64,000 nucleotides of DNA from Patescibacteria group bacterium (GCA_040390125.1 JAZJYZ010000001.1:506396-570395); one strand, 5' to 3'. Shown: positions 20,030-63,023, counted from the stretch's first letter. The notes: generated from the sequence alone by a model not told the origin. Numbers and translations: made by a program.

Positions 20030-20113
20030 GGTTCTAGGGACTAGCTTCTAGCTTCTAGCTTTTAGGTTTAACTTCAGAAAAACTAGCACCTAGCACCTAG
20101 AAGCTAGAACCTG
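20030..20113. repeat. Intergenic inverted repeat built from CTAGCTTCTAGC / GCACCTAGCACCTAGAAGCTAGAACC words between dnaK and dnaJ
   Basis: GGTTCTAGGGACTAGCTTCTAGCTTCTAGC...GCACCTAGCACCTAGAAGCTAGAACC. Confidence 0.7.
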
Positions 20114-20126
20114 TAAACTAACCCCT

Positions 20127-21206
20127 ATGGCTTCAAAAGATTACTACCAACTTCTCGGAATCGATAAAAAAGCCTCAAAAGAGGATATAAAGAAGGCGTT
20201 CCGTAAACTTGCGCACCAGTATCATCCGGATAAAAAAGGAGGCGACGAAGCGAAGTTCAAAGAGGTGAGTGAAGCGTACAGTGTGCTTTCTGATGACAAA
20301 AAGCGTTCAGAATACGATTCTTACGGCCGAGTATTTTCGGGAGGTGGATCTCAAGGGCCTCAAGGAGGCGGGTTCGAGGGTTTTGATTTCTCACAGTTCC
20401 AGGGTGGTGCTGATTTTGATGTTGACTTGAACGACATCTTTGGTGGATTTTCTGACATCTTTGGTGGTGGCCGGGGTAGGCAAGCTAGAGGTAGAGATAT
20501 TTCTGTTGATCTAGAACTCTCATTCAAAGAATCAGTGTTCGGACTTACACGCAGAATGCTTATCACTAAAGACAGTACATGTTCTTCGTGCACAGGCTCG
20601 GGTGCAGAACCTGGAACAAAAACAAAAACATGCCCAACCTGTAACGGCAAAGGCCAAGTGGTGGAGTCTAGGCGCTCTCCCTTTGGTACTTTTTCTGTCT
20701 CTACCGCATGTGCTACGTGTAATGGCAGACGTGTTGTTCCTGAAAAACCCTGCACTACCTGCAAAGGTTCCGGCGTAGAACGTCGTCAAGAAGAAATTAC
20801 CGTTGTTATTCCACCAGGCCTTGATAATGGACAAGTTATTCGCTTGGCAGGTTTTGGAGAAGCAATTTCTGGTGGTGCCACTGGAGATCTCTACGTAAAA
20901 GTACATGTACGTGCCGATCAAAAGTTTAGAAAAGAAGGATATAACCTTGTCACTGATCTTTCTGTAAAAATTTCTGACGCATTGATGGGCTCTGAATATC
21001 AGCTTGAAACTCTGGATGGCACGGTGAGTTTGAAAGTTCCACCACTTTCTTCTACTGATGAAATTCTTCGCATGAAAGGGAAAGGGGTACCTACGGAGCG
21101 TGGAAAGCGAGGCGATCTTCTTATACGTGTTCGTGTCGAGATGCCCCAGAAGCTATCCAAAGAAGCAAAAGAACTCCTTCTCAAGTTGAAACAAGAGGGA
21201 ATATAA
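20127..21206 (+). CDS. dnaJ: molecular chaperone DnaJ (Hsp40)
   Basis: J-domain ...[33 protein letters not shown]...; Gly/Phe region; four CxxCxGxG zinc-finger repeats ([32 protein letters not shown]). Confidence 0.95.
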
Positions 21207-21207
21207 A

Positions 21208-21288
21208 GAAGCTGCCAGCTTCCAGCTGTCAGGTTCCAGCTTTTAGAGGTTAAAGCTGAAAGCTAGCAGCTGGAAGCTGAAACCTGAT
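21208..21288. repeat. AGCTG/CAGCT-word inverted repeat (family member) after dnaJ
   Basis: GAAGCTGCCAGCTTCCAGCTGTCAGGTTCCAGCTTTTAGAGGTTAAAGCTGAAAGCTAGCAGCTGGAAGCTGAAACCTGA. Confidence 0.75.
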
Positions 21289-21312
21289 TTCGGTGTGGTA
21301 TGATTTTCCCGT

Positions 21313-21819
21313 ATGGATATACTTACGGATTTGGACATAGGAGGGAATTTTCATAAAGCTCTAGATTTTCTTGTGGGCTTTGGTAGTGACTTTTTTGCCT
21401 TTATAGTGCTGGCAGGTCTGGTTGCGGTTTTTGCATTTTATTTTGGACGTAATCGTTTGATGCCTCTCATTGCCGCTTTGTATGCGGCTGTTCCTTTATA
21501 CCTATTTTTTCCATTTCAAACTCCACTTCTCCAAGACCCGTACATAGCGATAGCCCTCTATCTACTCTTCGTCTTTCTTGCTCTGGTGGCTTTTTCGGGT
21601 CTCTCATTTTTTATGGCAAGTGCTCCAAGGTCATTGCTCCGAGTTGGTGCCACTTCTATTTTGGTTGCAGGGGCACTACTCGCAATAGGCATCCATGTTC
21701 TTCCTCTTGAACAAATTTATACACTAACCGCTCCAACAAAAGCTCTTTTTGCTTCAAACCAGGCCTTCTTTTGGTGGTTAGTAGCTCCATTAGCTGGGCT
21801 CTTTTTCTTAGAGCGATAA
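21313..21819 (+). CDS. Hypothetical polytopic membrane protein (4-5 TM), first gene of the 21.3-27.2 kb cluster
   Basis: Hydrophobic segments throughout; 9-nt gap to next gene. Confidence 0.5.
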   Translation: MDILTDLDIGGNFHKALDFLVGFGSDFFAFIVLAGLVAVFAFYFGRNRLMPLIAALYAAVPLYLFFPFQTPLLQDPYIAIALYLLFVFLALVAFSGLSFFMASAPRSLLRVGATSILVAGALLAIGIHVLPLEQIYTLTAPTKALFASNQAFFWWLVAPLAGLFFLER

Positions 21820-21828
21820 TAACCATTT

Positions 21829-23412: not shown

Positions 23413-23414
23413 CT

Positions 23415-24968: not shown

Positions 24969-24973
24969 CATCC

Positions 24974-27217: not shown

Positions 27218-27240
27218 GGTGCTACACTTTTTATGCAGGT

Positions 27241-34592: not shown

Positions 34593-34606
34593 TAGTTTCC
34601 TCCAAA

Positions 34607-34640
34607 CAAAAAGCCCCCGCTTGGGGGCTTTTTGTTTGGA
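34607..34640 (+). terminator. Rho-independent terminator (AAAAAGCCCCCGCTTGGGGGCTTTTTGTTTGG)
   Basis: GC-rich 7-bp stem + T-run immediately after 34188..34592. Confidence 0.8.
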
Positions 34641-36756: not shown

Positions 36757-36848
36757 ATCTTCTTCACAGAGAACAGTATATCTGCAAAAGTGGACCAGCC
36801 TTTAGATAGGAGGGTCTAATGATGTGTTTTCTGGTATTATTGGCAGAT

Positions 36849-36893
36849 GCTAGAAACCAGCTTTCAGCTTTCAGCTTTCAGGTGTCAGCTTAA
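36849..36893. repeat. CAGCTTTCAGCTTTCAGCTTTCAGGTGTCAGCTT word repeat (family member, single arm) in the 5' region of the 35746..36756 operon / upstream of trpS
   Basis: Read directly. Confidence 0.7.
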
Positions 36894-36905
36894 ATATCTA
36901 TAATA

Positions 36906-37847
36906 ATGAGCAAGAAACGCCTTTTAACGGGACTTCAACCATCAGGAGCTCTTCACATTGGGAACTATTTTGGTGCACTCAAACCTTTTTTTGATATATA
37001 TGAAGAGTACGATAGCTCGCTCATGATTGTGGACTATCACGCCCTCACGTCCCTCAAAAATCCAACTGAACTCAATAGAAACATACTTGATGTTGCAAAA
37101 GACTACCTTGCTGTTGGAATCGATCCTTCGAAAGCAACTATTTTCAAACAATCAGATGTGCCGGAGCACACGGAACTTGCCTGGATATTTGACTGCCTTG
37201 TGACTGTCCCATTTCTTATGCAGGGACATGCGTATAAAGATAAGGTAGCAAAAGGTCTTGAGGCGAATGCAGGCCTCTTTACTTACCCTATGCTTATGGC
37301 CGCCGACATTCTTTTGTATGACACTGAAATAGTGCCGGTGGGAGAAGATCAACGCCAACACATCGAATACACACGCGAAGCTGCAAATAAATTCAACATC
37401 GCATTTGGGGAAACATTTAAAGAACCTAAGGAGCAGATTCTTAAAGGTGTTGGTGTAGTGCCTGGTATTGATGGCACTAAAATGTCAAAAAGCTATGGCA
37501 ATGTCATACCGCTCTTCGGTTCAAAGGATGAAATAACAAAAGCAGTCATGGGTATCGTCACTGATTCCGGAGGAGATCGACCACAAAACGTATACGCCAT
37601 TCACTCTCTCTTTAAAACTGAAGTGGAACTTGCACCATTGTATGAAGCTAACAAAAAGAATTACAAAGCTCTCAAAGAAGCTTTAATTGCTGATATCGAA
37701 ACTGTCATCGGTCCAATGCGTACAAAACGAGAATCACTATCGGACGAGGAAGTGAAGCGTGTCATCAAAGAAGGGGGTGAGAAGGCTCGTACGCTTGCAA
37801 GTGCAAAGATGGCTGAAGTACGCAAGAAAGTAGGAGTCACTTTATAG
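36906..37847 (+). CDS. trpS: tryptophanyl-tRNA synthetase
   Basis: Class I HIGH-type motif ...QPSGALHIGNYFGAL... and KMSKS (...GTKMSKSYGN...); 313 aa. Confidence 0.9.
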   Translation: MSKKRLLTGLQPSGALHIGNYFGALKPFFDIYEEYDSSLMIVDYHALTSLKNPTELNRNILDVAKDYLAVGIDPSKATIFKQSDVPEHTELAWIFDCLVTVPFLMQGHAYKDKVAKGLEANAGLFTYPMLMAADILLYDTEIVPVGEDQRQHIEYTREAANKFNIAFGETFKEPKEQILKGVGVVPGIDGTKMSKSYGNVIPLFGSKDEITKAVMGIVTDSGGDRPQNVYAIHSLFKTEVELAPLYEANKKNYKALKEALIADIETVIGPMRTKRESLSDEEVKRVIKEGGEKARTLASAKMAEVRKKVGVTL

Positions 37848-37896
37848 CAGGTTTTAGGTTACAGGTAATAGGTTATAGTTTTAAAATTCAAACATC

Positions 37897-39369: not shown

Positions 39370-39792
39370 ATGAAAGTACAGGCAAAAAATTTGAATGACA
39401 CAGATAGAATAAAAATTCTTGACGCACTGTACACGTCTGCTGGTTCCCTCAAGGGGCGTGACGCCATGAAAGCTTTTCTTAAGGACCTCCTAACTGAAAG
39501 TGAACGCATTATGCTGGGGAGACGCATACTCATCGCTCAAGGTCTACTTGAAGGGAAAAGCAGTAGGACGATTTCAGAAGAGATGGGGGTTGGTTTAGAC
39601 ACCGTAGGAAAGGTAGAGCGATGGCTTCAAGATCAGATGCCTGGATATGAAAAAGCAATTACAGGAATGAATCGTGCTTTCGATCAACGGTTAAAGCAAG
39701 CTGAGTCAAAAAAGAATTGGAAAAACTTAAAACGGAAATACCCACTTCATTTTCTTCTTTTCAATATTGCTGACAAACTAAAAAACAAGTGA
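39370..39792 (+). CDS. TrpR-like/YerC-YecD family HTH protein
   Basis: ...LLTESERIMLGRRILIAQGLLEGKSSRTISEEMGVGLDTVGKVERWL... (Trp-repressor-like fold signature); adjacent to trpS. Confidence 0.65.
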   Translation: MKVQAKNLNDTDRIKILDALYTSAGSLKGRDAMKAFLKDLLTESERIMLGRRILIAQGLLEGKSSRTISEEMGVGLDTVGKVERWLQDQMPGYEKAITGMNRAFDQRLKQAESKKNWKNLKRKYPLHFLLFNIADKLKNK

Positions 39793-39832
39793 TTTGATAT
39801 ATCATATCACTGATATGATATATCAAATCACT
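39788..39832. promoter_or_regulatory. 45-bp near-perfect palindrome (AGTGATTTGATATATCATATCACTGATATGATATATCAAATCACT) overlapping the TrpR-like stop codon; two tandem variants of the 18-bp motif; may also act as bidirectional terminator hairpin
   Basis: Read directly; only the central nucleotide breaks symmetry. Confidence 0.5.
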
Positions 39833-39871
39833 CGTTAAAAGTAAGGGGGGATACTAATAAAGCGGGGAGGA

Positions 39872-44015: not shown

Positions 44016-44947
44016 ATGCAAACACTCGCCTCAATATACTTTCAGTTGTCATCGTACTTGTGTGCGGGGCAATCGTCGTCTCGGCGTGGCCATTAATTTT
44101 TCAAGAGCCTCAGTCTGCTCGTGTATCTGCGTCGGTCTTTTGTGCCAATCTTTCACCACAGCTCTCCTTAACGGGACGGGCAGCGTATGCCGAGGATATG
44201 ACGACTGGAAAAGTGCTTTACGGGAAAAACGCCGACGTACAACTTCCATTAGCGTCTTTAACCAAACTCATGACAGTACTCACGGCCTCTGACACGCTTG
44301 GGAGCAACGACATAGTTGTCATTTCGGAAGAGTCTCTCAGCCCAGAGGGGGACTCAGGTTTAACTCAAGGTGAGCGTTGGCATGTTAAAGATTTAATAGA
44401 TTTCACTCTACTCACTTCCTCGAACGACGGTGCGCATGCACTTGCTGTTGCAACACAGGCGAAAACCAAAGGCACCCCAGAAGTATTCATACAACGAATG
44501 AATGAGAAAGCTTTCTCACTCGGAATGGTGCAAACATATTTTGCGGATGACACTGGTCTTGATATCTCGGAAAATACTGCAGGTGCATATGGCTCGGCAA
44601 GAGATATAGGAAAACTATTTTCTTATGTCGCACGCACGCACCCTAATCTCATCGAGGCAACTACCGCTCCGTCGGGCACTTTTTTGTCCCTCGACAACAT
44701 AGCCCATAAGGGGAAAAACACGAGTAGCGTAATTACGGCTCTCTCTGGTGCAATAGGCTCGAAAACCGGATTTACTGATATTGCTGGAGGAAATCTTGCG
44801 GTAATTTTTGAACCATTGCCCGGACGAGCGGTAGTGGCAGTAATTTTAGGTTCAACGAGAGATGGAAGAGATACCGACATGGTAACTCTCGCAAACGCTC
44901 TAAAAATAAGCCTGAAACGGGATATACTCTGCACAAGCGATATTTAG
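44012..44947 (+). CDS. serine-type D-Ala-D-Ala carboxypeptidase (S11, PBP5/DacA-like)
   Basis: SxxK ...LASLTKLMT...; SxN ...LTSSNDGAHAL...; KTG ...GSKTGFTDIAG...; N-terminal TM anchor. Confidence 0.8.
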   Translation: MNANTRLNILSVVIVLVCGAIVVSAWPLIFQEPQSARVSASVFCANLSPQLSLTGRAAYAEDMTTGKVLYGKNADVQLPLASLTKLMTVLTASDTLGSNDIVVISEESLSPEGDSGLTQGERWHVKDLIDFTLLTSSNDGAHALAVATQAKTKGTPEVFIQRMNEKAFSLGMVQTYFADDTGLDISENTAGAYGSARDIGKLFSYVARTHPNLIEATTAPSGTFLSLDNIAHKGKNTSSVITALSGAIGSKTGFTDIAGGNLAVIFEPLPGRAVVAVILGSTRDGRDTDMVTLANALKISLKRDILCTSDI

Positions 44948-45025
44948 AAAGTAGAGGGTAGAATGTAGAATATTGCATACACAAAAAATTATGAATTTTT
45001 CTACCCTCTACCCACTACGCTCTAC
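44947..45025. repeat. Inverted repeat of GTAGAGGGTAGAA / TTCTACCCTCTAC words between dacA-like and mraY
   Basis: GAAAGTAGAGGGTAGAATGTAGAA...TTTTCTACCCTCTACCCACTACGCTCTAC. Confidence 0.7.
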
Positions 45026-45038
45026 TATCTAATTCACA

Positions 45039-47213: not shown

Positions 47214-47218
47214 GTGAT

Positions 47219-47312
47219 GGAAAGTAGAGAGTGGAGAGTGGGTTATAGGAAATAGTTAGGAGGGGATGAAGGATGTGAGGTTCTACCCACTACTCTCCAA
47301 TCTCTAACTACT
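47219..47312. repeat. Inverted repeat of GTAGAGAGTGGAGAGTGGGT / ACCCACTACTCTCCA words between ftsW and murG
   Basis: Read directly. Confidence 0.65.
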
Positions 47313-47340
47313 AGTTTCTAAACACTCTTAGACTTATACT

Positions 47341-48486
47341 TTGGATATGAAAATCGTTTTGACAGGAGGAGGTACAGGAGGGCATTTTTACCCAGTTATA
47401 GCAGTTGCTGAAGCCCTACAGGATATTGCAAAAGAGAAAAAATTGATTGACCCCGAGCTCTACTTCTTCGGGCCAGCTGCGTTTGATGAGCGAGCATTGT
47501 ATGAAAATGGCATCACGTTTGTAAAAACTCCGGCAGGAAAAATACGACGGTATTTTTCTATTCTCAATTTCTTTGATTTTTTTAAAACTGGATGGGGAAT
47601 ACTCGAGACGTGCCTTACGTTGTATAAAATTTTCCCTGACGTTGTTTTCTCAAAAGGAGGTTACGGAAGTGTGCCTACATTGATAGCGGCGAAAATTTTA
47701 CGTATTCCCGTCATCGCACATGACTCTGACGCAGTGCCTGGGCGTGCAACCATGCTTGCTGCACCCTTCGCAAAAAAAATTGGCATCTCATATGAAGAAG
47801 CCTACGAATATTTTCCTGAAAAAATACGAGCAAAAGTAGCACTTGTGGGAAATCCAGTGCGCAGAGAACTTCGAGATCCTGCTCGCGAAGGAGCACAAGA
47901 GTTTTTGGAACTTGAGCACAACGTCCCTGTATTACTTTTCCTTGGTGGCTCCCTTGGCGCAGAAAAACTCAATAATACTATTCTTGAAGCCTTGCCGGGA
48001 CTCATCGATCGCTATCAGGTAATACATCAAGCAGGACAAATTCATATCAAATCAGTCGCAGAAACAGCGCAAGTTATTTTAGGAAAAAATGAGAGGCGTT
48101 ACAGATATAAACCATACGGCTACTTATCGTCACTCGCACTCAAAATGTCTGCGGGAGCGGCTGATTTAGTCATAACACGCGCAGGTTCAGGCTCTATTGC
48201 AGAAGTTGCATCGTGGAAGAAGGCCTCCATTCTTATTCCTATTCCGGAAGAGGTAAGTCGAGATCAACGCTCAAATGCATTTGCCTATGCACGCTCAGGT
48301 GCTGCGATTGTTATGGAACAGGCAAATCTTACTCCACACCTATTACTTTCAGAGATAGATAGACTGTTTACCAATCCAAAAGTTCGAAACGATATGGCAG
48401 AAGCTGCGGGTAAGTTTGCCAAAAGTGATTCAGCAAAAACAATAGCGCAAATGGTCATAGACACGGCTCTGGAGCATGAAAGCTAG
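47341..48486 (+). CDS. murG: UDP-GlcNAc:lipid I GlcNAc transferase MurG
   Basis: MDMKIVLTGGGTGGHFYPVIAVAEAL... G-loop; GT28 C-terminal domain. Confidence 0.9.
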   Translation: MDMKIVLTGGGTGGHFYPVIAVAEALQDIAKEKKLIDPELYFFGPAAFDERALYENGITFVKTPAGKIRRYFSILNFFDFFKTGWGILETCLTLYKIFPDVVFSKGGYGSVPTLIAAKILRIPVIAHDSDAVPGRATMLAAPFAKKIGISYEEAYEYFPEKIRAKVALVGNPVRRELRDPAREGAQEFLELEHNVPVLLFLGGSLGAEKLNNTILEALPGLIDRYQVIHQAGQIHIKSVAETAQVILGKNERRYRYKPYGYLSSLALKMSAGAADLVITRAGSGSIAEVASWKKASILIPIPEEVSRDQRSNAFAYARSGAAIVMEQANLTPHLLLSEIDRLFTNPKVRNDMAEAAGKFAKSDSAKTIAQMVIDTALEHES

Positions 48487-48590
48487 CTTTCAGCTGTCAG
48501 CTTCCAGGTTTCAGCTTTAATACCACATCAAAATTAATAAAGCTGGCATTTAAAAGCTGGAAGCTGTAACCTGACAGCTGGAAGTTCTAA
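48481..48590. repeat. AGCTG/CAGCT-word inverted repeat (family member) between murG and gltX
   Basis: AGCTAGCTTTCAGCTGTCAGCTTCCAGGTTTCAGCTTTAA...AAAGCTGGCATTTAAAAGCTGGAAGCTGTAACCTGACAGCTGGAAG. Confidence 0.75.
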
Positions 48591-51415: not shown

Positions 51416-51512
51416 TAGGGGTTAGTGTTTAGGGTCTAGTGGTTAGGCGATGCCTCATCGGATCCGAAGGGGTCATTAGGGAAAACCTAAACCCTGTACA
51501 CTAAACACTGTT
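51416..51512. repeat. Structured intergenic region with TAGTGTTTAGGG / TAGTGGTTAGG word inverted repeats upstream of the DUF378 gene; related copy (opposite orientation) at 53731-53764
   Basis: CTAGGGGTTAGTGTTTAGGGTCTAGTGGTTAGG...CCTAAACCCTGTACACTAAACAC; 53731 CCTATCCCCTAAACGCTAACCACTAAACCCTAGC. Confidence 0.55.
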
Positions 51513-51625
51513 CACTTTGCTGTTTAATAAACAATCCACACCAAATACTTCGGAAGTCCGGAAAGATGTAATTCGGGTGTTCAATGTATATGTCGATCTT
51601 TATTATGTAGAAGTTTTAATTAATA

Positions 51626-51660
51626 AGCTAACAGCTAGAAGCTGAAAGCTATAAGCTAAT
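51626..51660. repeat. AGCTAACAGCTAGAAGCTGAAAGCTATAAGCTAAT word repeat (family member, single arm)
   Basis: Read directly. Confidence 0.6.
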
Positions 51661-51664: not shown

Positions 51665-51907
51665 ATGAAATATTTGCATATGCTTGCGTTCCTACTCCTT
51701 GTAGTAGGTGGCCTTAACTGGGGTCTTGTGGGCCTTGGTGGTTTTATGGGTGGCGACTGGAATGTCGTCAACATGATTCTCGGTAGCTGGCCACAAGTGG
51801 AGTGGGCTGTATACGTCCTCGTAGGTCTCTCAGCAGTCTGGCTTGTGCTCACTCACAAGAAGGAGTGCATGATGTGCGTGGCAGGCTCTGCTGGCCCAAT
51901 GGCATAA
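51665..51907 (+). CDS. DUF378 family small membrane protein
   Basis: ...LLVVGGLNWGLVGLGGFMGGDWNVV... characteristic GLNWGL motif; 80 aa. Confidence 0.7.
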   Translation: MKYLHMLAFLLLVVGGLNWGLVGLGGFMGGDWNVVNMILGSWPQVEWAVYVLVGLSAVWLVLTHKKECMMCVAGSAGPMA

Positions 51908-52108
51908 ATTCAATACCATTAGGTATTTTAAAAACCCTCCAAGCTGGAGGGTTTTTAAATGATTTGACATACCAGTAGGGGAGATGTATAAATTTCTATA
52001 TGAGCGAAATTGGCAAAAGAGAAACACCTTGCACTCACCCTATTTTATCTAGCACAATTTACGGCTACGATTTACTTAGAGGACGCACTTTACGTGAATG
52101 TCTAATTT

Positions 52109-53093: not shown

Positions 53094-53767
53094 CCTAAAT
53101 ACCCTTAAGAAAAACGACGACCACGTGCCTTGCTAGCGCAAGAAGGAAAATGATAACCCCAAACGCCACCGCAGTATTCGTTTTTGCAGGTAAAAGATTT
53201 CATTTCTCTTTTCACTGCTGGATGAGCAAGAGAGTCCCTAGGTATTGGGTTTTTATAGGCATCTAAATAACGCATGAATTTTAAGTTATTTATTTTGGTT
53301 TTCTTGGCTTTCCTCTTCGTTTTCCTCTTTTTCTTGGTTTTACCCCAAACATTTCTTGAAGAAGAATCGGTGCAGTTTCTTGCATCTGCTTCAAAACTGC
53401 AGCTCTTTGGTGTCGATTCCCGTCAGCACCAGACCTCTTTAGACGCTCCGGTCTACTATCGCTCCCGTGTGGCATAACGAGCACAATAACACCTTACTTT
53501 GATATGTCAATTAATAACGGGAGTTACGGACAGAATAGACTTTACGATTTTGGCTATTCGTGAGAACATTAAGAATGATAGAAAACGATTTAAGCCATTG
53601 GCTGAACTTGGCATTCTTTACGATTGTCATCCTTGCTTTCTTGAAAGACAGCAATAGCTGATTTGAATTGGAAAATCACTCCCCTTCTTACTTTACTTCT
53701 ATTTTTTTGCTAATGATCCCTCCGAAATCGCCTATCCCCTAAACGCTAACCACTAAACCCTAGCTAT

Positions 53768-54055
53768 ATGTCTCAAGAATTTGATTTCAATTCTGTTCCT
53801 TCAAAGCTGTTCATCGATACCGTGAACGTAAGGGTCATCAATGGGCTTCTGCACCTTGCTCTTCAATCCGGACAAACAACTTCATGCTTCCTACTCCCCC
53901 TCCCTGCTGCAAAAATGATAGCCAAGGCGATAACCAAGCAAGTAGAAGAAATAGAAGAGAAAAACAACATAAAATTTGACGACCGCCTTCCCAACGAGCC
54001 AATGCTGAGTCCCTGGACTTCAAAAAACGAAGGGGGTGCTCCGGAGCAAAAGTAG
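53768..54055 (+). CDS. Hypothetical protein
   Basis: ORF only. Confidence 0.3.
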   Translation: MSQEFDFNSVPSKLFIDTVNVRVINGLLHLALQSGQTTSCFLLPLPAAKMIAKAITKQVEEIEEKNNIKFDDRLPNEPMLSPWTSKNEGGAPEQK

Positions 54056-54558: not shown

Positions 54559-54894
54559 AATAAAAGAGGAAGTTTGCTCGGATATAAAAAACTCCCTATA
54601 CAGGGAGTTTTGATATAAGGCTTTTGTTTTAAAATTATTTTATTCTTCTGACAGGAAAGAATGTTTGACGTAAAAGTTCATAGGCGCTCATAGGCCTTTG
54701 TCTAGGAGGTGTATTTTCTGAAGGCGGAACACCGGCCCGTTCGTCTGGTTTGGTTTTACGCTCAACAACTGGATAACCTGACTTAAGTTCTTCCGCCGAC
54801 CTCCCCGCCCATACCATAATTACTATATAGATTAGCTTTTACAAAGCAAAGTGTAACTAAGAGGATTCAGAAAAGCAATGGAGCTGTTTTGAAT

Positions 54895-55293
54895 TTACTT
54901 CACCGCCAAGTGTCCCCAGCAAGCCTTGGATGACTTCCATGGCCTGGTGCCTTGTTTCTCGTACAAATGCTTTGCATACGCAAGGTTACCGTCAAGACTA
55001 TAGATATTGATATTGAGCTCCTCAGCCTCCCCTTCGTGATACTGGGTATTGATTTGCATCACCCCGATATCGTCAGAGTTAACAACCCCACGGAGAATTT
55101 CTCCGTCCTCATCGATATGACGCAGTCTCGACTCGCACCAAGCGATATCGGCCAAAATAGGCGTATCGGCATAGTACTTCTCCACATACTCCTTCAACGT
55201 CTCTACGTTTGGAGCCTGCACTTCCTTGGTGGAGGTGGCTGCTGGCGTAGACATAGCAACGCTCGCTAGCAATAGCATTATTGGTAACAACAT
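54895..55293 (-). CDS. Small secreted lysozyme-like/lytic transglycosylase-domain protein
   Basis: Signal peptide; ...ADIAWCESRLRH...(~25 aa)...IGVMQINTQYH... (catalytic Glu-Ser + GxMQI motif). Confidence 0.55.
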   Translation of the reverse strand: MLLPIMLLLASVAMSTPAATSTKEVQAPNVETLKEYVEKYYADTPILADIAWCESRLRHIDEDGEILRGVVNSDDIGVMQINTQYHEGEAEELNINIYSLDGNLAYAKHLYEKQGTRPWKSSKACWGHLAVK

Positions 55294-55550
55294 ATGAATC
55301 TAATGATTTTTTTGGCTTTTAGCCTTTAGAGATGCAAGAAGATTGCGGGGGTTCCCCTTCGTAACAATCGTGCTTGGGGTACTAAAAAAGCCGGCCCGAA
55401 AGCCGACTACTTCAATACGTTAGCACTCGCATCATTTCGTGTCAAGCCTTGCGGAACCAAAAAAGACCTTTATATGGCTCAATGAAGCCGTATAAATGCT
55501 CATGAGGAAATCATGGTTTTTGCGTGTTTTTGAGGTTTTAAGTTTTTTTT

Positions 55551-55587
55551 CCACTAACCCCTATTCCCTATAACCTATAACCTATCT
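55551..55587. repeat. TAACCTATAACCTAT word repeat; reverse-complement relative of 37847-37878 (GGTTTTAGGTTACAGGTAATAGGTTATAG)
   Basis: Read directly. Confidence 0.55.
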
Positions 55588-56313
55588 TCAACACTTGACC
55601 AGGTTCAAAACAGCCTCATGAGCCTCCTCGGGGCTATCTACGACATGGAAAAGAGCCAAATCTTCCTTATTGATGGTTTTGTACTTTGCCAAAAGGTGAT
55701 CTTTAAAGAAGGTAACTAGAGGTGTCCAGTACTCTCTATTGTAAAGAATTATCGGAATCCGCTTGATTTTATTGGTCTGAACTAAGGTCAAAATCTCGAA
55801 TAGCTCGTCCATGGTTCCAAAACCACCTGGGAAGTAAATATACACTTCGGAGGCGAAAGAGAGCATCACTTTTCGGGTAAAGAAGTAGTTGAAGAGGGCT
55901 GTATCAGTAAGGTAGGGGTTAACATGCTGTTCGTGTGCGAGCTTGATGTTAAGACCTACAGACTGCCCCCCTGCTTCAAATGCCCCCTTACTCGCAGACT
56001 CCATGATGCCCCCTGCGCCTCCAGTAATTACCACGAACCCTGATTTAGCGAGCTTTTCAGCAAGAAGTCTTGCGTCCTCATATACCTTAGGCTCCATTTG
56101 AGAGCGAGCAGAACCAAAAAAAGTTGCAGCGAGGCGATACTTACGAAGCATAGAGAAACCATCAATCAGCTCACCCATGATTCTGAAGATACGCCACGAC
56201 TCCATGTCTTTGGTGTGGTCGGTTTTTTCAGGATCGCACACACGCAAATCCCCCTCCATGCGATGCTCGCCAGGCGGATTTACGATGTTGTATTTTCTTT
56301 GTGGTTCAGACAT
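55588..56313 (-). CDS. LOG family protein (TIGR00730; cytokinin riboside 5'-monophosphate phosphoribohydrolase-like Rossmann protein)
   Basis: ...VVITGGAGGIMESASKGAFEAGG... and ...IYFPGGFGTMDELFEILTLVQT... (PGGxGTxxE motif). Confidence 0.8.
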   Translation of the reverse strand: MSEPQRKYNIVNPPGEHRMEGDLRVCDPEKTDHTKDMESWRIFRIMGELIDGFSMLRKYRLAATFFGSARSQMEPKVYEDARLLAEKLAKSGFVVITGGAGGIMESASKGAFEAGGQSVGLNIKLAHEQHVNPYLTDTALFNYFFTRKVMLSFASEVYIYFPGGFGTMDELFEILTLVQTNKIKRIPIILYNREYWTPLVTFFKDHLLAKYKTINKEDLALFHVVDSPEEAHEAVLNLVKC

Positions 56314-56340
56314 ATGGGAAAGTGTAACATCTTGAACTAC

Positions 56341-56376
56341 TAGCTTACAGCTTTCAGCTTTCAGCTTTCAGCTTTT
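56341..56376. repeat. TAGCTTACAGCTTTCAGCTTTCAGCTTTCAGCTTTT word repeat (family member)
   Basis: Read directly. Confidence 0.7.
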
Positions 56377-56391
56377 GTGGAAGAAGAAAAA

Positions 56392-56991
56392 CTATTCGGA
56401 TAGCCAAGGGATGGGGTGGGTGGAAAATCCTGGAAGAAGAGGTTTATTGTAAAGGAGGCGGGAAGCTACCTCCGCATGCGATAGGGCACCGGTGAGAGCA
56501 TTATGAGGCTTTGGTTCTTCGGGGATGCCCACATACTTGAGGGCAGCATCCAAGGTGAGCTTAGTGTGATGTTTCTCCTCGTCAAATGGAGGCGTAATGT
56601 CTCGCTCAACCATGTGCATATAGGCAAGGCTGTGCGTATCGATAGTCCGATGGGCGAAAGGAAAATTGATACCTCCTCTCTCGCACGCTGCAATCAAGAA
56701 GTCTCTATCGAAAGAAGGATTCTGCCCTACAAAGGTTCTGTCGTGTACTTCTGCCGTCCAGACTATGAATTCCTGCACTAATTCTAATTCGCTTTTCTTT
56801 GAGGAATCTGTAGCCTCTGCGTTTGAAAAGCCATTCACCGCAAGTGCTTCTTCGTTTATATGTGCCCCCTCCCATACCCTACATTCGCCATAAAAACGCT
56901 TTGACGGCGTTTCTGTATCAACCGCACCAATCGATAGGATTGAATTCTTATGAGGTTCGGTTCCTGAGCATTCAATATCGAGAGCAATCAT
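56392..56991 (-). CDS. DEDDh 3'-5' exonuclease (DnaQ/RNase T-like)
   Basis: Exo I ...MIALDIECSGTEP...; Exo III ...HNALTGALSHAEVASRL... Confidence 0.75.
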   Translation of the reverse strand: MIALDIECSGTEPHKNSILSIGAVDTETPSKRFYGECRVWEGAHINEEALAVNGFSNAEATDSSKKSELELVQEFIVWTAEVHDRTFVGQNPSFDRDFLIAACERGGINFPFAHRTIDTHSLAYMHMVERDITPPFDEEKHHTKLTLDAALKYVGIPEEPKPHNALTGALSHAEVASRLLYNKPLLPGFSTHPIPWLSE

Positions 56992-57077
56992 TTGAGTAAG
57001 TTTACCGTCTAACGAGCCGAGGGGAAAGAGGACTTATGTTCTTTCCCGAGCGAGAGCTGACGGAAAAACATCCTAGG

Positions 57078-57157
57078 TTTTACAGCTTTCAGCTGTCAGG
57101 TGCCAGCTTTTTTCTGAATTCAAAGCTGAAAGCCGGAAGCTGAAAGCTAACAGCTAA
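57078..57157. repeat. AGCTG/CAGCT-word inverted repeat containing the conserved core CAGCTTTTTTCTGAATTCAAAGCTGAAAGCCG (shared with 59017-59050)
   Basis: TTTTACAGCTTTCAGCTGTCAGGTGCCAGCTTTTTTCTGAATTCAAAGCTGAAAGCCGGAAGCTGAAAGCTAACAGCTAA. Confidence 0.75.
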
Positions 57158-57158
57158 T

Positions 57159-57575
57159 TCAGAGTCCATTACACCGCCCGGCATGGTAGCCCGCAGATTC
57201 GGCAGAGGCTCTGGTATTGAAATAAACTCTGTTCGCTACTGGAATTTTTATCGCTAGCGGGCACCATGGAAAGAAATACGTACTGCCAGTCTTGGACGCT
57301 ACATATGTGCCCGCAAGACTAGGTGGAGGGGGCAGTGAATCTGATCCTTCTGAAAATGACGAAACCTCGCCAATCCCAATGGCACCGAGGAGAGCTGAAG
57401 CACTTTGCCCATTTGGATACAGCACCTTAAATTCACCCTTTCCTCCGTAAAAAACCGATAATCTACCGAGCCCAAAAGCAAACAAAGCAACCAATATAAT
57501 CACCAGAACCACGAGTATGTTCTCCCGTAAGCGCCTCCAAACCACCTTGATTTTATTAGTGAAATCACGAAACAT
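57159..57575 (-). CDS. Hypothetical membrane-anchored protein
   Basis: N-terminal TM ...ILVVLVIILVALFAFGLG...; no family recognised. Confidence 0.4.
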   Translation of the reverse strand: MFRDFTNKIKVVWRRLRENILVVLVIILVALFAFGLGRLSVFYGGKGEFKVLYPNGQSASALLGAIGIGEVSSFSEGSDSLPPPPSLAGTYVASKTGSTYFFPWCPLAIKIPVANRVYFNTRASAESAGYHAGRCNGL

Positions 57576-57762
57576 AGTGAGTAGATTTCAGTTATACCCC
57601 GTTAAATCTGGCTCAAAGCCAGCCAGCTTGAAATTTTCCGTGAAAACAGTTATATTCTAACGTATCGGGTACGCAATGAGCAGTTTCTATACACCAAAGT
57701 CCAAGCTGGATTTAACAGGGTGTAAGAATTTCTAAGCTCGATACTCGCTAACAAATTCTAAC

Positions 57763-58035
57763 ATGGCAACAAAAAAAGCAGCCGGCTCAGCAAAAAACCT
57801 AACAGATTCAAATCCTCAATACTTGGGCGTTAAGCTCTATGCAGGTCAGAAAACTAAGAAAGGTTCAATCATCATCCGTCAGCGTGGTACTAAATTCATG
57901 GCAGGAAAAAACGTGGAAGTTGGTAAAGATCACACCCTCTATGCGGTTGAAGAAGGTACCGTTTCTTTCCGTGTTGCTCGAAAGACTCGTTTCGACGGAT
58001 CCACCGTCAAGCGAAATGTCGTTGACGTGAAGTAA
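57763..58035 (+). CDS. rpmA: 50S ribosomal protein L27
   Basis: ...[49 protein letters not shown]... L27 signature. Confidence 0.9.
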
Positions 58036-58037
58036 AC

Positions 58038-58244: not shown

Positions 58245-58262
58245 AACTAAACCTTCATAAAT

Positions 58263-58520
58263 ATGGCAGGAGAAAGAAGCTCGTCCACAAGAGCTAACAG
58301 TCGTTTTCGTGAAATTGATGCAAGGCGGGTTGTGCCAGGAATGACTGCGAGATTGAAAGAACCGACGAAAACACTGAAAGCCGGCCCCTACTTAATTTTA
58401 GACATTACCCCTGTCGGGAGAGTGAAAATTCGAAGAACTGAAGGTAAGAAGGGTACAGCAACACTGTCTCCACTGCATCCAGATGTAGTTTTCCAAATAC
58501 CTAGGCAGGTACTGAAATAA
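58263..58520 (+). CDS. Hypothetical small basic protein
   Basis: ORF only; operon position. Confidence 0.35.
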   Translation: MAGERSSSTRANSRFREIDARRVVPGMTARLKEPTKTLKAGPYLILDITPVGRVKIRRTEGKKGTATLSPLHPDVVFQIPRQVLK

Positions 58521-58950: not shown

Positions 58951-58952
58951 AT

Positions 58953-59071
58953 AAAAGCTGTCAGGTTCCAGCTTATAGCTTTCAGCTTTAAATGCAAATT
59001 AAAAAAACCGATGCCTAGAGCTTTTTCTGAATTCAAAGCTGAAAGCCGAAACCTGGCAGCTGGCAGCTACT
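58953..59071. repeat. AGCTG/CAGCT-word inverted repeat (family member) with conserved TTCTGAATTCAAAGCTGAAAGCCG core
   Basis: AAAAGCTGTCAGGTTCCAGCTTATAGCTTTCAGCTTTAAATGC...AGAGCTTTTTCTGAATTCAAAGCTGAAAGCCGAAACCTGGCAGCTGGCAGCTAC. Confidence 0.75.
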
Positions 59072-60281: not shown

Positions 60282-60308
60282 TGTTTCCTATTATGCCATA
60301 TCCGAGGG

Positions 60309-60373
60309 GAAGCTTTCAGGTTACAGCTGTCAGCTTTCAGCTTTAACTTCTAAAAGCTGGAAACTGGAAGCTC
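60309..60373. repeat. AGCTG/CAGCT-word inverted repeat (family member)
   Basis: GAAGCTTTCAGGTTACAGCTGTCAGCTTTCAGCTTTAACTTCTAAAAGCTGGAAACTGGAAGCTC. Confidence 0.7.
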
Positions 60374-60458
60374 ACAAAGGGAATGCTCCAATCTTTCAAA
60401 CCTTCTGTTCACTGTACACTATCCACTGTACACTCTTCATCGGTGTATACTGCCGAGG

Positions 60459-61373: not shown

Positions 61374-61386
61374 AGACCCGGAACGG

Positions 61387-61476
61387 GTCAGGTGCCAGGT
61401 TTCAGCTGTCAGCTTTCAGCTTTAAATTTAGAAATCAAGAATAAGCTGGAACCTGACAGCTGGCAGCTGAAAGCTC
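61387..61476. repeat. AGCTG/CAGCT-word inverted repeat (family member) between corA and dnaB
   Basis: GTCAGGTGCCAGGTTTCAGCTGTCAGCTTTCAGCTTTAAA...TAAGCTGGAACCTGACAGCTGGCAGCTGAAAGCTC. Confidence 0.75.
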
Positions 61477-61557
61477 TGCGAAGTGGATATATCCGTGTAC
61501 AAACCTCCGTATAAGGGGCAATTTTGAAAAGTAAGTAAAAAACACCCCAGTGCTACA

Positions 61558-62946
61558 ATGCCATTTATGGCGAATCCTGGCACACGAATTCCTCCTCAAT
61601 CAACAGACGCTGAACGTGCACTTTTGGGCTCCGTAATGCTCAAGCCCGACGCAATCCACGAAATAACTGATTTCGTTTCTGCCGACTCTTTTTATGTAGA
61701 AAAGCACCGTGTCATTTATCGAGCCTTCACCGATTTAGCGACCGGTGGAAATCCTATTGACCTTCTTTCAACTGCAAACCGACTAAAAGAAACAAACGAT
61801 CTAGAGCGAGCTGGCGGTAACTCATACTTGGCAGAGCTCGTAAGTGCAGTACCCTCTTCTGCAAACCTAAAATACTACGCAGAAATCGTCCAGAAAAAAT
61901 CGATGATGCGCTCTCTCATTTCTGCATCGTCAGACATTGGCGAGATGGGCTATGACGAATCGCAAGACATCGATGAGCTTTTAAATAACGCAGAAAAAAG
62001 AATCTATGAAGTAACCAGCTCCCCTTCTGTTAGAAAATTCGTTGCGATTGGTGATGCCTTGGGAGAGGCGTGGGAGCGTTTTGACAACCTCCACAAGGGT
62101 GACTATCAAATGCGAGGCATCCCCACAGGCTTTGATGCCCTCGACAACATGCTGGCTGGCTTTCAACGCTCTGACTTAATTATTTTAGCCGCTCGTCCTT
62201 CCGCAGGTAAAACTGCCTTTGCCCTCGACATCGCACGACAAACCGCCATCAAGCACGGCACGCCCGTTGGAATTTTTTCACTTGAAATGAGCGCACAGCA
62301 GTTGGTTGACCGTATGCTCGCCGCAGAAGCACGAGTTGACGCTTGGAAGCTTCGCACCGGAAAAATTTCAACTGATGAAGAATTTGAAAGAATCCGTGAC
62401 GCCATGGGTCGACTTTCTAAGGCTCCTATCCATATCGACGACCAGCCGGCAACCAATGTGCTCGGCATGCGATCTGCCGCTCGTCGATTAAAACGAGAAC
62501 ACGGCATTGGACTTCTTGTTGTTGACTACCTTCAGCTCATGAGTCCAACATCAGCACGTTCATCCGACTCAATGGTGCAACAGGTGACAGAAATCTCCCG
62601 CTCCCTAAAAACCCTTGCTCGTGAACTCGATGTTCCAGTGCTTGCTCTCTCCCAGCTTTCGCGTGCCATTGAGCAAAGGCGTGGTCGCCCTCGCCTTTCA
62701 GACCTTCGAGATTCAGGATCTATTGAGCAGGATGCTGACGTGGTTATGTTCATCCACAATGAAGATAGGTATAACGACAACAAAGAAGAGCGTAGCAATG
62801 TAACCGAAATCTTGATTGAAAAGCATCGTAACGGTCGCACCGGCAAAATAGATCTCTTCTTTGATGTAGAGCGTGCCACGTTCTTACCAATCGATAAGTC
62901 AGGCTTCTCTGGCGGTGCGCCAGGCAACGCACAAGACGATTTCTAA
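61558..62946 (+). CDS. dnaB: replicative DNA helicase DnaB
   Basis: N-terminal domain ...PPQSTDAERALLGSVML...; Walker A ...LIILAARPSAGKTAFALDIA...; ...LLVVDYLQLM...; no intein. Confidence 0.95.
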   Translation: MPFMANPGTRIPPQSTDAERALLGSVMLKPDAIHEITDFVSADSFYVEKHRVIYRAFTDLATGGNPIDLLSTANRLKETNDLERAGGNSYLAELVSAVPSSANLKYYAEIVQKKSMMRSLISASSDIGEMGYDESQDIDELLNNAEKRIYEVTSSPSVRKFVAIGDALGEAWERFDNLHKGDYQMRGIPTGFDALDNMLAGFQRSDLIILAARPSAGKTAFALDIARQTAIKHGTPVGIFSLEMSAQQLVDRMLAAEARVDAWKLRTGKISTDEEFERIRDAMGRLSKAPIHIDDQPATNVLGMRSAARRLKREHGIGLLVVDYLQLMSPTSARSSDSMVQQVTEISRSLKTLARELDVPVLALSQLSRAIEQRRGRPRLSDLRDSGSIEQDADVVMFIHNEDRYNDNKEERSNVTEILIEKHRNGRTGKIDLFFDVERATFLPIDKSGFSGGAPGNAQDDF

Positions 62947-62949
62947 TTT

Positions 62950-63023
62950 AAAAAGCTGTCAGGTTTCAGCTGTTAGCTTTCAGCTTTAAATGCAAAAAGC
63001 TGGCACCTGAAAGCTGTAAAACA
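62950..63023. repeat. AGCTG/CAGCT-word inverted repeat (family member) between dnaB and recR
   Basis: AAAAGCTGTCAGGTTTCAGCTGTTAGCTTTCAGCTTTAAATGCAAAAAGCTGGCACCTGAAAGCTGTAAAAC. Confidence 0.75.

Follow-up and report, generated by a model that had tools for sequence, protein, structure and literature searches.

What are the inverted repeats, built from reiterated short words, that occupy so many intergenic spacers in a 64,000-nucleotide (nt) stretch of a Patescibacteria group bacterium genome (GCA_040390125.1, JAZJYZ010000001.1:506396-570395; "the window" hereafter means the whole of this stretch), and are they propagated by the transposase encoded at 15631-16308? An original prediction, made from the sequence, had likened them to repetitive extragenic palindromic (REP) elements or bacterial interspersed mosaic elements (BIMEs), for which that gene would supply a REP-associated tyrosine transposase (RAYT), and had offered lineage-specific terminator hairpins or binding arrays for a structural protein as alternatives. 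We find that the organising feature of the repeats is a strict 7-nt phase, with a left arm of the form (NNNNYAG)n and a right arm of the form (CTRNNNN)n, where YAG denotes the left-arm triplet and CTR its complement on the right arm. Judged on their sequence, the arrays belong to a class of heptamer foldbacks like the short tandemly repeated repetitive (STRR) sequences, one that appears to be new for the candidate phyla radiation (CPR) and whose handedness rule is striking. Relatives, given below as L numbers, were retrieved through DnaB as partial loci of 2-21 kb, and this retrieval points to the window being part of a Paceibacteria/Kaiserbacteria-like CPR genome.

In the window, chains of at least four triplets at exactly 7-nt spacing number 16 for YAG and 13 for CTR, against 0-2 for control triplets counted in the same way, and no YAG or CTR chain of at least four occurs there at periods 4-6 or 8-11. 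The pattern YAGN4YAGN4YAGN4YAG matches the window 49 times, compared with 0.08 +/- 0.31 expected from 100 dinucleotide-preserving shuffles, and its 8-nt-period control (N5 instead of N4) has 0 matches there; the enrichment over shuffled composition is thus very strong. Tandem Repeats Finder, which is independent of the triplet counts, returns about 40 rows of period 7 or 14 in the window. When units are anchored on AG, the sequence logo shows AG as invariant and preceded by a pyrimidine, with G/T-rich and C-poor positions upstream (consensus K-K-N-Y-A-G); G stands directly before AG in 1-4% of cases in the window and its closest relatives, and in 16% in more distant Paceibacteria loci. The window has at least five word families (CAGCTNN, CTAGCTT, GTAGAGG, TAGGTTA and TAGKGKT), and YAG is the sole part common to them. 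The particular words are secondary, and the families are variants of one YAG-phased theme. Arms typically comprise 4-7 imperfect 7-nt units, occasionally 10-25, and about half of the arrays form mirrored pairs.

All of the loci listed in the original prediction hold the words it described, and the dispersed intergenic family with several word sub-families is real; what had been missed is the family-wide 7-nt phase. Nor is the family confined to the window, as arrays also occur in relatives of the same clade, in other Paceibacteria, and in metagenome and phage contigs. The description as inverted repeats holds for the many mirrored pairs and fails at 36849-36893, 51626-51660, 56341-56376, 37847-37878, 53731-53764 and 55551-55587, which are single arrays, and the range of 20030-63023 proved incomplete, further arrays lying at 801-824 and 3978-4008. 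An identical 27-nt core does occur at two loci, at 57109 and 59022, 1-2 nt from the positions given earlier (57108 and 59024). No Rfam family matches the window at gathering score, and a search at E <= 1 of 55280-57800 only returned just a sub-threshold miRNA-precursor-like match to the hairpin at 57079-57153. No tRNAs were found in the window.

Arrays occupy roughly half of the window gaps of at least 40 nt, and 28 of the 31 typed window arrays lie in gaps or overlap a gene end. The only clear in-gene case is a four-unit CAG-phased run (CAGAGTA CAGCGAA CAGTGAA CAG) at 19935-19958, in the 3' part of the dnaK coding sequence, which could be chance or a remnant. The flanking genes are housekeeping genes, including grpE-dnaK-dnaJ, rplM-rpsI, ftsW, murG, gltX, corA, dnaB, recR and the genes for a D-Ala-D-Ala carboxypeptidase, a family-4 glycosyltransferase, L9 and an S41 protease. 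An array starts 0-15 nt past a stop codon, a TAG stop sometimes being its first unit, and ends 0-20 nt before the next start. The arrays had been said to sit often between convergent genes; this does not hold, with one array-bearing gap among five convergent gaps in the window (801-824; 3/9 for divergent gaps). Across five related genomes, arrays occupy 1/16 convergent, 34/66 tandem and 6/20 divergent gaps (Fisher p = 0.0013 for convergent versus tandem and p = 0.002 for convergent versus all other gaps; the genomes being related, these counts are not fully independent). The clear divergent cases in the window are 36757-36905, with a single array, and 60282-60458, with a mirrored pair and a further CTR array; the third is the lone CTR array 53732-53762.

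Every two-armed gap in the window reads YAG arm, centre, CTR arm on the plus strand. Because (NNNNYAG)n-centre-(CTRNNNN)n is its own reverse complement, this is equal to a rule in which the YAG strand runs 5' to 3' away from the neighbouring open reading frame (ORF), from the gene to the middle of the spacer, and the rule holds whatever the orientation of the ORF. Neighbouring opposite-strand arrays no more than 80 nt apart are ordered YAG to CTR in 45 cases and the reverse in 0, a count that covers the window, clade relatives, other Paceibacteria, metagenome contigs and two phage contig sets. At CPR loci, 31 start-adjacent arrays read CTR in the sense of the gene and 17 stop-adjacent arrays read YAG. 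There is one genuine polarity exception among the CPR-locus arrays, 36844-36893, and the other seeming exceptions are lone arrays in short gaps, in contact with a stop as well as a start.

On the CTR strand, whose reading direction is outward to the flanking gene, the share of arrays with stops in every one of the three frames is 61% for the CPR set, 85% for the high-GC set and 92% for the TAACTGA type, compared with 3-19% after shuffling. Start codons occur on the two array strands at 0.005-0.024 per nt, against 3/64 = 0.047, a baseline that is our own uniform-composition calculation rather than a shuffle. Shine-Dalgarno (SD)-like motifs are essentially absent upstream of window genes. Counted over 73 genes, a TANNNT box stands exactly at -12 from the start codon, its commonest position, in 12 and anywhere from -15 to -12 in 26 (examples at 20113-20118, 21299-21304, 60443-60448 and 61549-61557); TG often immediately precedes the box. 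This placement suggests that leaderless mRNAs may be widespread in this lineage, with promoters lying between array and start codon.

The expectation that the loci fold was borne out for 10 of 13 pairs, which reach z <= -2 in comparison with shuffles (energies of -24 to -48 kcal/mol), and not for the other three (17994-18120, 47216-47326 and L014 9812-9912), which fold no better than shuffles. Relatives also have spacers with two arms of different word families. In an arm swap within the CAGCT family, in which each right arm was replaced by those of six other loci, own arms gave -34.2 and swapped arms -37.7 kcal/mol (permutation p = 0.97), and locus-specific co-evolution of arms through selection on base pairs is thus not supported; as own arms pair no better than foreign ones, their complementarity is a family-level by-product.

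It is correct, as first described, that the arrays are without T-tracts and that many of them are able to fold into hairpins. With a GC content of 43-50%, the arms contain mismatches and have no T-run and no short GC-rich stem; canonical hairpins with a GC stem and T-tract stand in convergent and some tandem gaps (34601-34640, 51927-51959 and 54559-54634). A terminator consensus scan gave 29 hits versus 20 +/- 4.9, which is not a significant enrichment, and in 44-64 kb neither sigma-70 promoter nor terminator consensus rises above shuffles. The likeness to intrinsic terminators lies in a hairpin after the stop codon in tandem gaps; the arrays differ in lacking the short GC-rich stem and U-tract, in being near-absent from convergent gaps and in being present upstream of divergent promoters. 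With 3 of 13 pairs unfolded as well, the proposal of lineage-specific terminators stands at best in part, and the arrays cannot simply be the terminators of this lineage.

Three further candidates were discarded. G-quadruplex elements are ruled out, as no G3+N1-7 x4 motif occurs on either strand of the window, and the TAGGGTT-type arms contain at most 2 GGG runs. Integron attC sites have the order RYYYAAC...GTTRRRY. The order GTTTAGG...CCTAAAC found here is the reverse of this, and no integrase is present. A tetranucleotide palindrome plus triloop, considered as the reason for a unit of 7 nt, fits the AGCT, CTAG and GTAC words and fails for TAGGGTT, CAGTGGT and TAACTGA.

The gene invoked for mobility, ORF 15631-16308, encodes a Y1 HUH protein that matches PF01797, and it scores 59 bits against the RAYT model NF047646, below the cut-off of 80. 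It is bracketed by a perfect inverted 13-mer, GGTCAGCCACCAT (15597-15609, and 16298-16310 on the minus strand), with a third copy 0.8 kb downstream (17093-17105); the 13-mer lies inside a small hairpin (AATGG...CCATT) and is probably the RAYT-like gene's own REP-like partner. The gene's flanks at 15435-15630 and 16309-16516 hold no heptamer arrays, and the word family is indeed, as already observed from the sequence, absent from beside this gene and from the RHS gene. The nearest homologue of the RAYT-like gene in the loci fetched, at 54% identity, comes from the array-free L006, and none was found in L001-L003, L014 or the phage loci, all of them partial loci of 2-21 kb rather than whole genomes.

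Bertels and Rainey (2011; PMC3116915) define REPINs by cognate repeats in the non-coding DNA that adjoins a RAYT gene; since the flanks here carry their own 13-mer and no arrays, the arrays fall outside that definition. Compared with REP, BIME and REPIN elements (PMC3116915), they are likewise short, dispersed and extragenic, often inverted doublets predicted to fold in single-stranded DNA or mRNA, with several families per genome and likely a similar physical effect on transcripts. They differ in that their arms are variable tandem heptamers rather than conserved palindromic 16-35-mers, and in that no cognate copy stands beside the RAYT-like gene; in the partial loci of 2-21 kb, RAYT presence also does not appear to track arrays. 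Array copies have no fixed core or ends, sharing words while the order, number and ends of units vary, and TAG-family arms are not self-palindromic. That the arrays are REP or REPIN elements mobilised by the Y1 transposase at 15631-16308 is therefore scarcely credible to us: their intergenic dispersal, their often hairpin-capable inverted doublets, their presence/absence polymorphism, the RAYT-like features of a Y1 HUH transposase encoded in the window and the GTAG contained in one word family would fit, but the gene's own inverted 13-mer, its sub-threshold match, the array-free context of its nearest homologue and the coexistence of several unrelated word families with a single RAYT-like gene all speak against the link that had been proposed.

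Comparison with relatives shows how quickly arrays turn over. DnaB of L001, L002 and L014 is 97% identical to that of the window at the amino acid level, and that of L003 92%; the genes of these four are about 76% DNA-identical to the window and syntenic with its 51-64 kb. The same spacers are occupied in the window, in L001, L002 and L014, and in L003, with different word families (CAGCTTT, TAGGGTT and TAGGTTA, respectively, in the protease-corA gap). Among L001, L002 and L014, which are mutually about 94-96% DNA-identical, no fewer than five spacers show an array swapped for another family or for an unrelated cassette, or no array at all, so the presence/absence polymorphism that the original prediction had proposed to look for exists. 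L002 and L014 are 96.3% identical over 9.2 kb, and array-bearing spacers account for 11 of the 12 indels that separate them, the other being a 63-nt indel at L002 7012, where the L9 gene has its 3' end. In two spacers the window and L014 resemble each other more closely than in the genes round about, and one of these spacers differs by exactly one 7-nt unit (CTGGCAC).

In the array-free relatives L004-L009 the DnaB-RecR spacer is 3-12 nt, versus 92-215 nt in array carriers, and the protease-CorA spacer, with its two -10 boxes back to back, is 37-42 nt, versus 126-177 nt; arrays are therefore lineage-specific additions rather than ancestral regulatory DNA. Their distribution in Paceibacteria is patchy: arrays occur in the loci of 12 of 80 species, and the array-rich ones are the window's clade plus L010, L011 and L028. 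L011 uses TAACTAA/TAGTTAT words, near-identical to TAACTGA, and L021 has heptamer arrays with another anchor, TACGA, and no CTR.

Beyond the CPR, searching viral contigs for (CAGCTTT)x3 yielded 29 loci, of which most have 57-69% G+C and many show a like architecture at gene junctions, built from words such as TCAGCNN and CAGTGGT, and a metagenome scan for the mirrored form added nine further loci, among them L117 with 25 x AAAGCTG. In L085, a tailed-phage fragment that encodes a tape-measure protein and for which a host search gave distant tape-measure matches only, most structural genes have CTR arrays that extend as far as the ATG, and no SD. Among the remaining period-7 arrays of phage and metagenome loci, YAG/CTR is present in 77%, versus 37% by chance. 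The 107 loci retrieved with TAACTGA (mean G+C 39%) include mirrored pairs of like handedness, with a YAG to CTR pairing of 5:0 in TAACTGA-type phage loci. No protein common to the window and the array-rich phage loci was found. As a separate matter, the unit in some high-GC phage contigs (IMG/VR L083-L109, e.g. consensus CAGCCAC) is GTGGCTG, which in tandem forms overlapping E. coli-type Chi sites (GCTGGTGG); given the array polarity, these Chi-like sites face outward on both sides. An identification of the arrays as tandem Chi sites was dropped, being true only of (GTGGCTG)n in those contigs and not of the window.

Heptamer repeats have been known since 1990 in the form of STRR sequences. Heptamers are the commonest long simple repeats and are favoured by slippage, according to Mrazek (2007) as cited in PMC4692102 and PMC4679880. 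Rehm et al. (2015; PMC4692102) describe GGGAATC repeats in Xanthomonas and GGGGA(C/T)T repeats in Nostoc, a group to which the cyanobacterial STRR first seen in Calothrix also belong; these heptamers are transcribed on both strands and have been assigned no function, and each Xanthomonas genome holds 70-75 convergent inverted pairs of them. The arrays in the window share with these the 7-nt tandem units, the strong intergenic bias, the placement of the repeat strand nearest its 5' ORF whatever the orientation, the convergent inverted pairs, a position kept between species while length and sequence vary, and the lack of any tie to gene function. They differ in having no single word, with at least five families that have only YAG in common, in a CPR host whose genes are apparently leaderless and SD-less, and in the depleted gap class, which is convergent here and divergent in Xanthomonas; judged by the ORF rule, the Nostoc STRR unit has its CAG on the other strand. 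The G-quadruplex interpretation given by Rehm et al. is not applicable, because the window holds no such motif.

The TAACTGA repeats of marine Beggiatoaceae, cyanobacteria and Bacteroidetes (MacGregor 2015; PMC4679880) end about 1 nt before start codons that have no ribosome-binding site (RBS), and carry stop codons on their forward strand; binding by S1, Csp or CsrA, or horizontal spread, has been suggested for them. They resemble the arrays described here in their CTR-type unit (CTGATAA), their forward orientation abutting starts without an RBS, their stops in all frames in the forward direction and their patchy phyletic distribution. The Beggiatoa arrays are mostly single, of one exact word, with one inverted pair out of 170, whereas about half of those here are mirrored pairs of degenerate words, which also follow stop codons, and the TAACTGA word itself is absent among the words of the window. 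A literature search of limited scope found no reports of such arrays in CPR bacteria, or of heptamers in Parcubacteria, and none of the words themselves. By analogy only, the same triplet at 7-nt spacing recurs in the binding sites of HutP, (UAG-N4)x3, and variable-length inverted arms made of short tandem subrepeats round a variable centre, in that case long arms, characterise eukaryotic foldback transposons; among the window ORFs scanned, neither a HutP homologue nor a transposase is associated with the arrays.

Starting from the anatomy, phase, polarity and turnover described above and from the absence of a RAYT link, all of which are observed, we infer that slippage and recombination drive the arrays and that their effect on RNA is REP-like. 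The account we favour, which may equally well prove right or wrong, is that these are STRR-like heptamer arrays, resized by slippage and shuffled by recombination, that survive, inert with respect to translation, as filler running from a stop codon to the promoter or start that comes next. Instead of serving as a dedicated regulatory device, they would fill intergenic DNA and renew themselves. Replication slippage would lengthen and shorten them in 7-nt steps, and recombination or gene conversion among arrays would homogenise, swap and replace them, with allelic exchange of whole spacers contributing; the RAYT-like transposase would play no part in their propagation. They would persist only where harmless, from the stop codon of the upstream gene to the next -10 box or start codon, and the survivors would be inert words with few start codons and with three-frame stops on the outward-reading CTR strand. 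Where co-transcribed arms belong to the same family, a long imperfect hairpin would form, which in tandem gaps probably acts as a REP- or BIME-like barrier at the 3' end or as an insulator before the next, apparently leaderless, gene. Slippage is supported by the CTGGCAC unit that distinguishes the window from L014, by (TCTTCCT)x7 at 18051-18102 and by the 25 copies of AAAGCTG in L117, and the 27-mer common to two loci adds to the evidence for turnover. Interchangeable arms, unfolded pairs, rapid turnover, lineage-specific gain and the missing RAYT link all fit this account.

Several observations weigh against the filler account. A neutral or selfish origin alone does not explain why AG is invariant across word families and unrelated hosts, nor why the unit is 7 nt, and it does not explain the 45:0 polarity unless there was a single founder or a conserved machine reads the arrays. 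Arrays persist at corresponding spacers in species with a gene identity of only about 76% and with genomes that are compact otherwise, and they stand at most gene junctions of a phage structural operon; this persistence hints at selection for having arrays. The indels between L002 and L014 are mostly whole-segment replacements rather than clean multiples of 7, so a multiples-of-7 test is uninformative, and polar growth, with newer and more uniform units toward the centre, is not supported, no gradient in unit homogeneity being seen (2.14 mismatches in outer versus 1.81 in next-to-inner units of CPR arrays, Wilcoxon p = 0.17). As the AG invariance, the 7-nt unit and the handedness are unexplained by filler, alternative readings stay alive. 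The broadest of these, which we consider rather improbable, is that YAG/CTR-phased foldback arrays form one pan-bacterial and phage class, whose invariant triplet, 7-nt register and handedness would be imposed by a conserved machine or by a non-autonomous element that spreads horizontally. Such a class may span the CPR, high- and low-GC phage contigs and the TAACTGA and STRR-type repeats of Beggiatoa and cyanobacteria; candidates for the machine would be the DnaG primase or a reader protein that advances along single-stranded nucleic acid 7 nt at a time, and the element may have spread without any known transposase.

A function at the RNA level is the less remote alternative, though still an unlikely one in our estimation: the YAG arm in the 3' region of the upstream mRNA and the CUR arm before the next start would pair into a hairpin, whose effect would be to terminate, stabilise or insulate the upstream transcript or to hide the downstream start until translation of the upstream gene has taken place, the YAG arm being G/U-rich and a lone, G-poor CUR arm serving as an SD-independent, stop-codon-rich landing zone. 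The distances to stops and starts given above, the near-lack of SD-like motifs, the arrays that reach the ATG without an SD in L085 and in the Beggiatoa TAACTGA repeats, the strong folding of most pairs, the parting of genes within the conserved operons grpE-dnaK-dnaJ and rplM-rpsI, and a polarity that is exactly YAG after a stop and CUR before a start are all in keeping with such punctuation. It is harder to reconcile with the rarity of arrays in convergent gaps, where canonical terminators stand, with arrays upstream of both promoters in divergent gaps, and with the roughly one third of genes that have a TANNNT box near -12, many of them behind arrays, since the implied leaderless mRNAs would exclude the CUR arm; unfolded pairs, mixed-family pairs, own arms that pair no better than foreign ones, relatives that manage with 3-42-nt spacers and the ability of either arm type to precede a start codon in short gaps add to the difficulty. 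Binding to a protein of 7-nt register that coats or melts the arms as single-stranded RNA or DNA seems to us a long way from probable; the candidates would be a HutP-like ring, or a cold-shock-domain or S1-type protein with a footprint of about 7 nt for each domain. HutP reads UAG-N4-UAG-N4-UAG, NAG triplets 4 nt apart as in HutP-type sites are present in the arrays, and a periodic triplet reader would be expected to keep YAG fixed at 7-nt intervals and to let the remaining four positions vary, as is seen here; the recurrence of one anchor in unrelated hosts and phages and the typical arm of 4-6 units agree with this, and S1, Csp or CsrA had been proposed for the TAACTGA repeats (MacGregor 2015, PMC4679880). 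Yet scans of window ORFs, 30 of them with Pfam and 10 with NCBIfam, gave no HutP, TRAP or cold-shock-domain family, the window and the array-rich phage loci share no protein, cold-shock motifs were found only in array-free loci and one phage locus, and the L021 arrays use TACGA. The DnaG primase begins primers at CTG in E. coli and at CTA in Firmicutes, which raises the idea, to our minds very improbable, of a constraint from replication: CTR would be the primase start triplet, and a foldback whose distal arm on the lagging-strand template consists of CTR arrays, whichever side the fork comes from, would be primed and replicated ahead of any snapping into a hairpin, only this handedness being stable. 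The anchor is exactly CTR/YAG, the 45:0 polarity is independent of gene orientation and host, and the dyad symmetry would make the arrangement independent of fork direction, but CTR triplets are common everywhere by chance, the L021 arrays lack them and the 7-nt unit is left unexplained.

The array inventory of the window is given in Table 1.

Table 1. Heptamer arrays of the window, with strand, immediate context and, for mirrored pairs, folding of the two arms relative to shuffles.
Feature	Coordinates	Strand	Context
Single array, YAG on minus strand (CTR on top)	801..824	-	7 nt from stop of minus-strand ORF 832-1530; the window's only array in a convergent gap
YAG array, TAGCGTT words	3978..4008	+	Overlaps last codons and stop of rplM and the rplM-rpsI spacer
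Left (YAG) arm, GTAGAG words	17994..18033	+	Begins at grpE stop
Right (CTR) arm	18051..18120	-	(TCTTCCT)x7, then CTACCCT/CTAACTA units; ends 5 nt before dnaK ATG; pair 17994-18120 no better than shuffles, z +0.26
Left arm, CTAGCTT words	20029..20065	+	7 nt past dnaK stop
Right arm, CTAGCAC/CTAGAAG...	20083..20127	-	Runs into dnaJ ATG; final units make -10-like TAAACT
Left arm, CAGCTNN words	21210..21246	+	Past dnaJ stop
Right arm, AAAGCTG words	21252..21287	-	Pair with 21210..21246: -40.3 kcal/mol, z -4.4
Single YAG array, (CAGCTTT)n	36844..36893	+	Divergent gap, 13-17 nt upstream of plus-strand tRNA-synthetase gene
Single YAG array, TAGGTTA words	37848..37878	+	From stop codon, 49-nt tandem gap
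Left arm, GTAGAGG words	44945..44971	+	First unit is the gene's TAG stop
Right arm, CTACCCT words	45000..45031	-	7 nt before next ATG; pair with 44945..44971 z -6.3
Degenerate left arm, GTAGAGA/GTGGAGA/TTATAG	47218..47255	+	Past ftsW stop
Right arm, CTACCCA CTACTCT ... CTAACTA	47283..47326	-	Before murG; pair with 47218..47255 z -0.5, no better than shuffles
Left arm, CAGCTNN words	48484..48518	+	First unit is murG TAG stop
Right arm	48553..48584	-	8-12 nt before gltX ATG; pair with 48484..48518 -44.3 kcal/mol, z -6.3
Left arm, TAGKGKT words	51416..51447	+	1 nt past stop of M23 peptidase gene
Right arm, CTAAACC CTGTACA CTAAACA CTG	51487..51516	-	Pair with 51416..51447 z -2.8
Single CTR array, AAGCTAA/AAGCTGA	51625..51659	-	Ends 5-6 nt before ATG at 51665
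Single CTR array, CCTAAAC words	53732..53762	-	Ends 5 nt before ATG at 53768; 674-nt divergent gap
Single array, CCTATAA words	55554..55585	-	3 nt from stop of minus-strand gene 55588-56313; YAG in that gene's sense
Single array, (CAGCTTT)n	56341..56375	+	78-nt gap between two minus-strand genes; CTR in downstream gene's sense; orthologous spacers keep an array in L014 and L003 and have TAGKGKT words instead in L002
Left arm, CAGCTNN words	57083..57110	+	
Right arm, AAAGCTG words	57122..57157	-	Ends 1 nt from stop of minus-strand gene 57159-57575; loop and inner arm of pair 57083-57157 hold 27-mer identical to 59022-59048
Left arm	58956..58992	+	5 nt from start codon of L9 gene (minus strand)
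Right arm	59032..59068	-	Abuts stop of S41 protease gene; pair with 58956..58992 -47.8 kcal/mol, z -4.5
Left arm	60311..60344	+	Divergent protease/CorA gap, upstream of the protease's CATAAT box
Short right arm, AAGCTGG AAACTGG AAGCTC	60349..60373	-	Pair with 60311..60344 z -2.4
Second CTR array, CTGTACA words	60405..60434	-	Just upstream of CorA's TATACT box
Left arm	61389..61423	+	Past CorA stop, after small conserved hairpin 61376-61388
Right arm	61443..61475	-	Pair with 61389..61423 z -4.1; about 80 nt of conserved sequence, then dnaB
Left arm	62954..62987	+	7 nt past dnaB stop
Right arm, AAAGCTG GCACCTG AAAGCTG TAA	62995..63019	-	Pair with 62954..62987 z -4.1; one extra 7-nt unit (CTGGCAC) in L014 orthologue

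Other elements share these spacers. A near-perfect palindromic element of about 60 nt (CCGTCAGCTCTCGCTCGGGGAAGAGA...TCTCTTCCCC.TCGGCTCGTTAGACGG) occurs at 57005-57063 (minus strand) and 63029-63088 (plus strand) in the window and at about 7277-7394 in L014, each copy having a heptamer array on one side and on the other a TAARCT box that precedes an ATG by about 7 nt; the L014 copy is missing, as an 81-nt indel, at the same site in the 96%-identical L002, and the element looks like a small mobile or promoter-proximal cassette. The ATG of the longest recR ORF, at 63057, lies inside this element, and homologue alignments together with the TAAGCT box at 63089-63094 point to 63102 as the true start; for dnaB, the start is probably the second ATG (residue 4), 7 nt past TGCTACAAT. 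A conserved and apparently structured element of about 190 nt, with a CCCTGTTAAATC...GATTTAACAGGG stem and no Rfam match, occupies 57576-57762 in the window, where it ends exactly at the rpmA start codon, and recurs in L002 (6494-6681, 11381-11595 and 15091-15233) and L014 (6309-6496); in L002, related copies before recR and another gene replace heptamer arrays. A 42-nt perfect palindrome with a T-rich tail, CTGTATAGTATAATTTAACGATCGTTAAATTATACTATACAG, is found in several spacers of L002 (5855-6088, 7398-7565 and 13051-13269) and L014 (5671-5903, 7270-7555 and 13316-13609) and not in the window, twice in a central position between a YAG arm and a CTR arm; it is reminiscent of the small dispersed repeats that Elhai et al. 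reportedly described in 2008 as nested in cyanobacterial heptamer arrays.

Right after the corA stop lies a small stem-loop, at 61376-61388 in the window and at L001 1623-1633, L014 9812-9824 and L003 6816-6826, in which pairing is kept through differing sequences in four species (ACCCGGAACGGGT, GGCACAAAGTGCC, ACGCAAAGCGT and GCGCGAAGCGC); such compensatory change suggests a functional RNA hairpin distinct from the arrays. An intergenic region of about 250 nt is conserved in four species (window 55294-55550, L002 4117-4400, L014 3934-4220 and L003 1443-1716); it holds GGGGTACTAAAAAAGCCGGCCCGAAAGCCGAC, a minus-strand terminator-like hairpin, has no Rfam match even at E <= 1, and may be a small RNA gene. 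Directly after a Trp-repressor-family gene (39370-39792), a 26-nt near-perfect palindrome (AACAAGTGATTTGATATATCATATCA / TGATATGATATATCAAATCACTCGTT) stands at 39784-39836 and may be an operator; a related motif lies upstream of the same gene.

Fillers of 100 nt between housekeeping genes are unexpected in a streamlined CPR genome, and they are hotspots of structural difference between genomes that are about 95% identical. The arrays are also likely to break assemblies, to mislead start calling, as at recR, and to mimic hairpin RNAs in scans. What is conserved in them is a phase-locked YAG triplet and not a word, and their handedness is without exception in 45 pairs, across the CPR and two unrelated phage contig sets; regularities of this kind make testable the old question of why heptamer units are 7 nt long, why they lie so close to gene ends and what role they have. 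If a single pan-bacterial and phage class did underlie this, the arrays would be functional punctuation of gene boundaries where translation is SD-independent.

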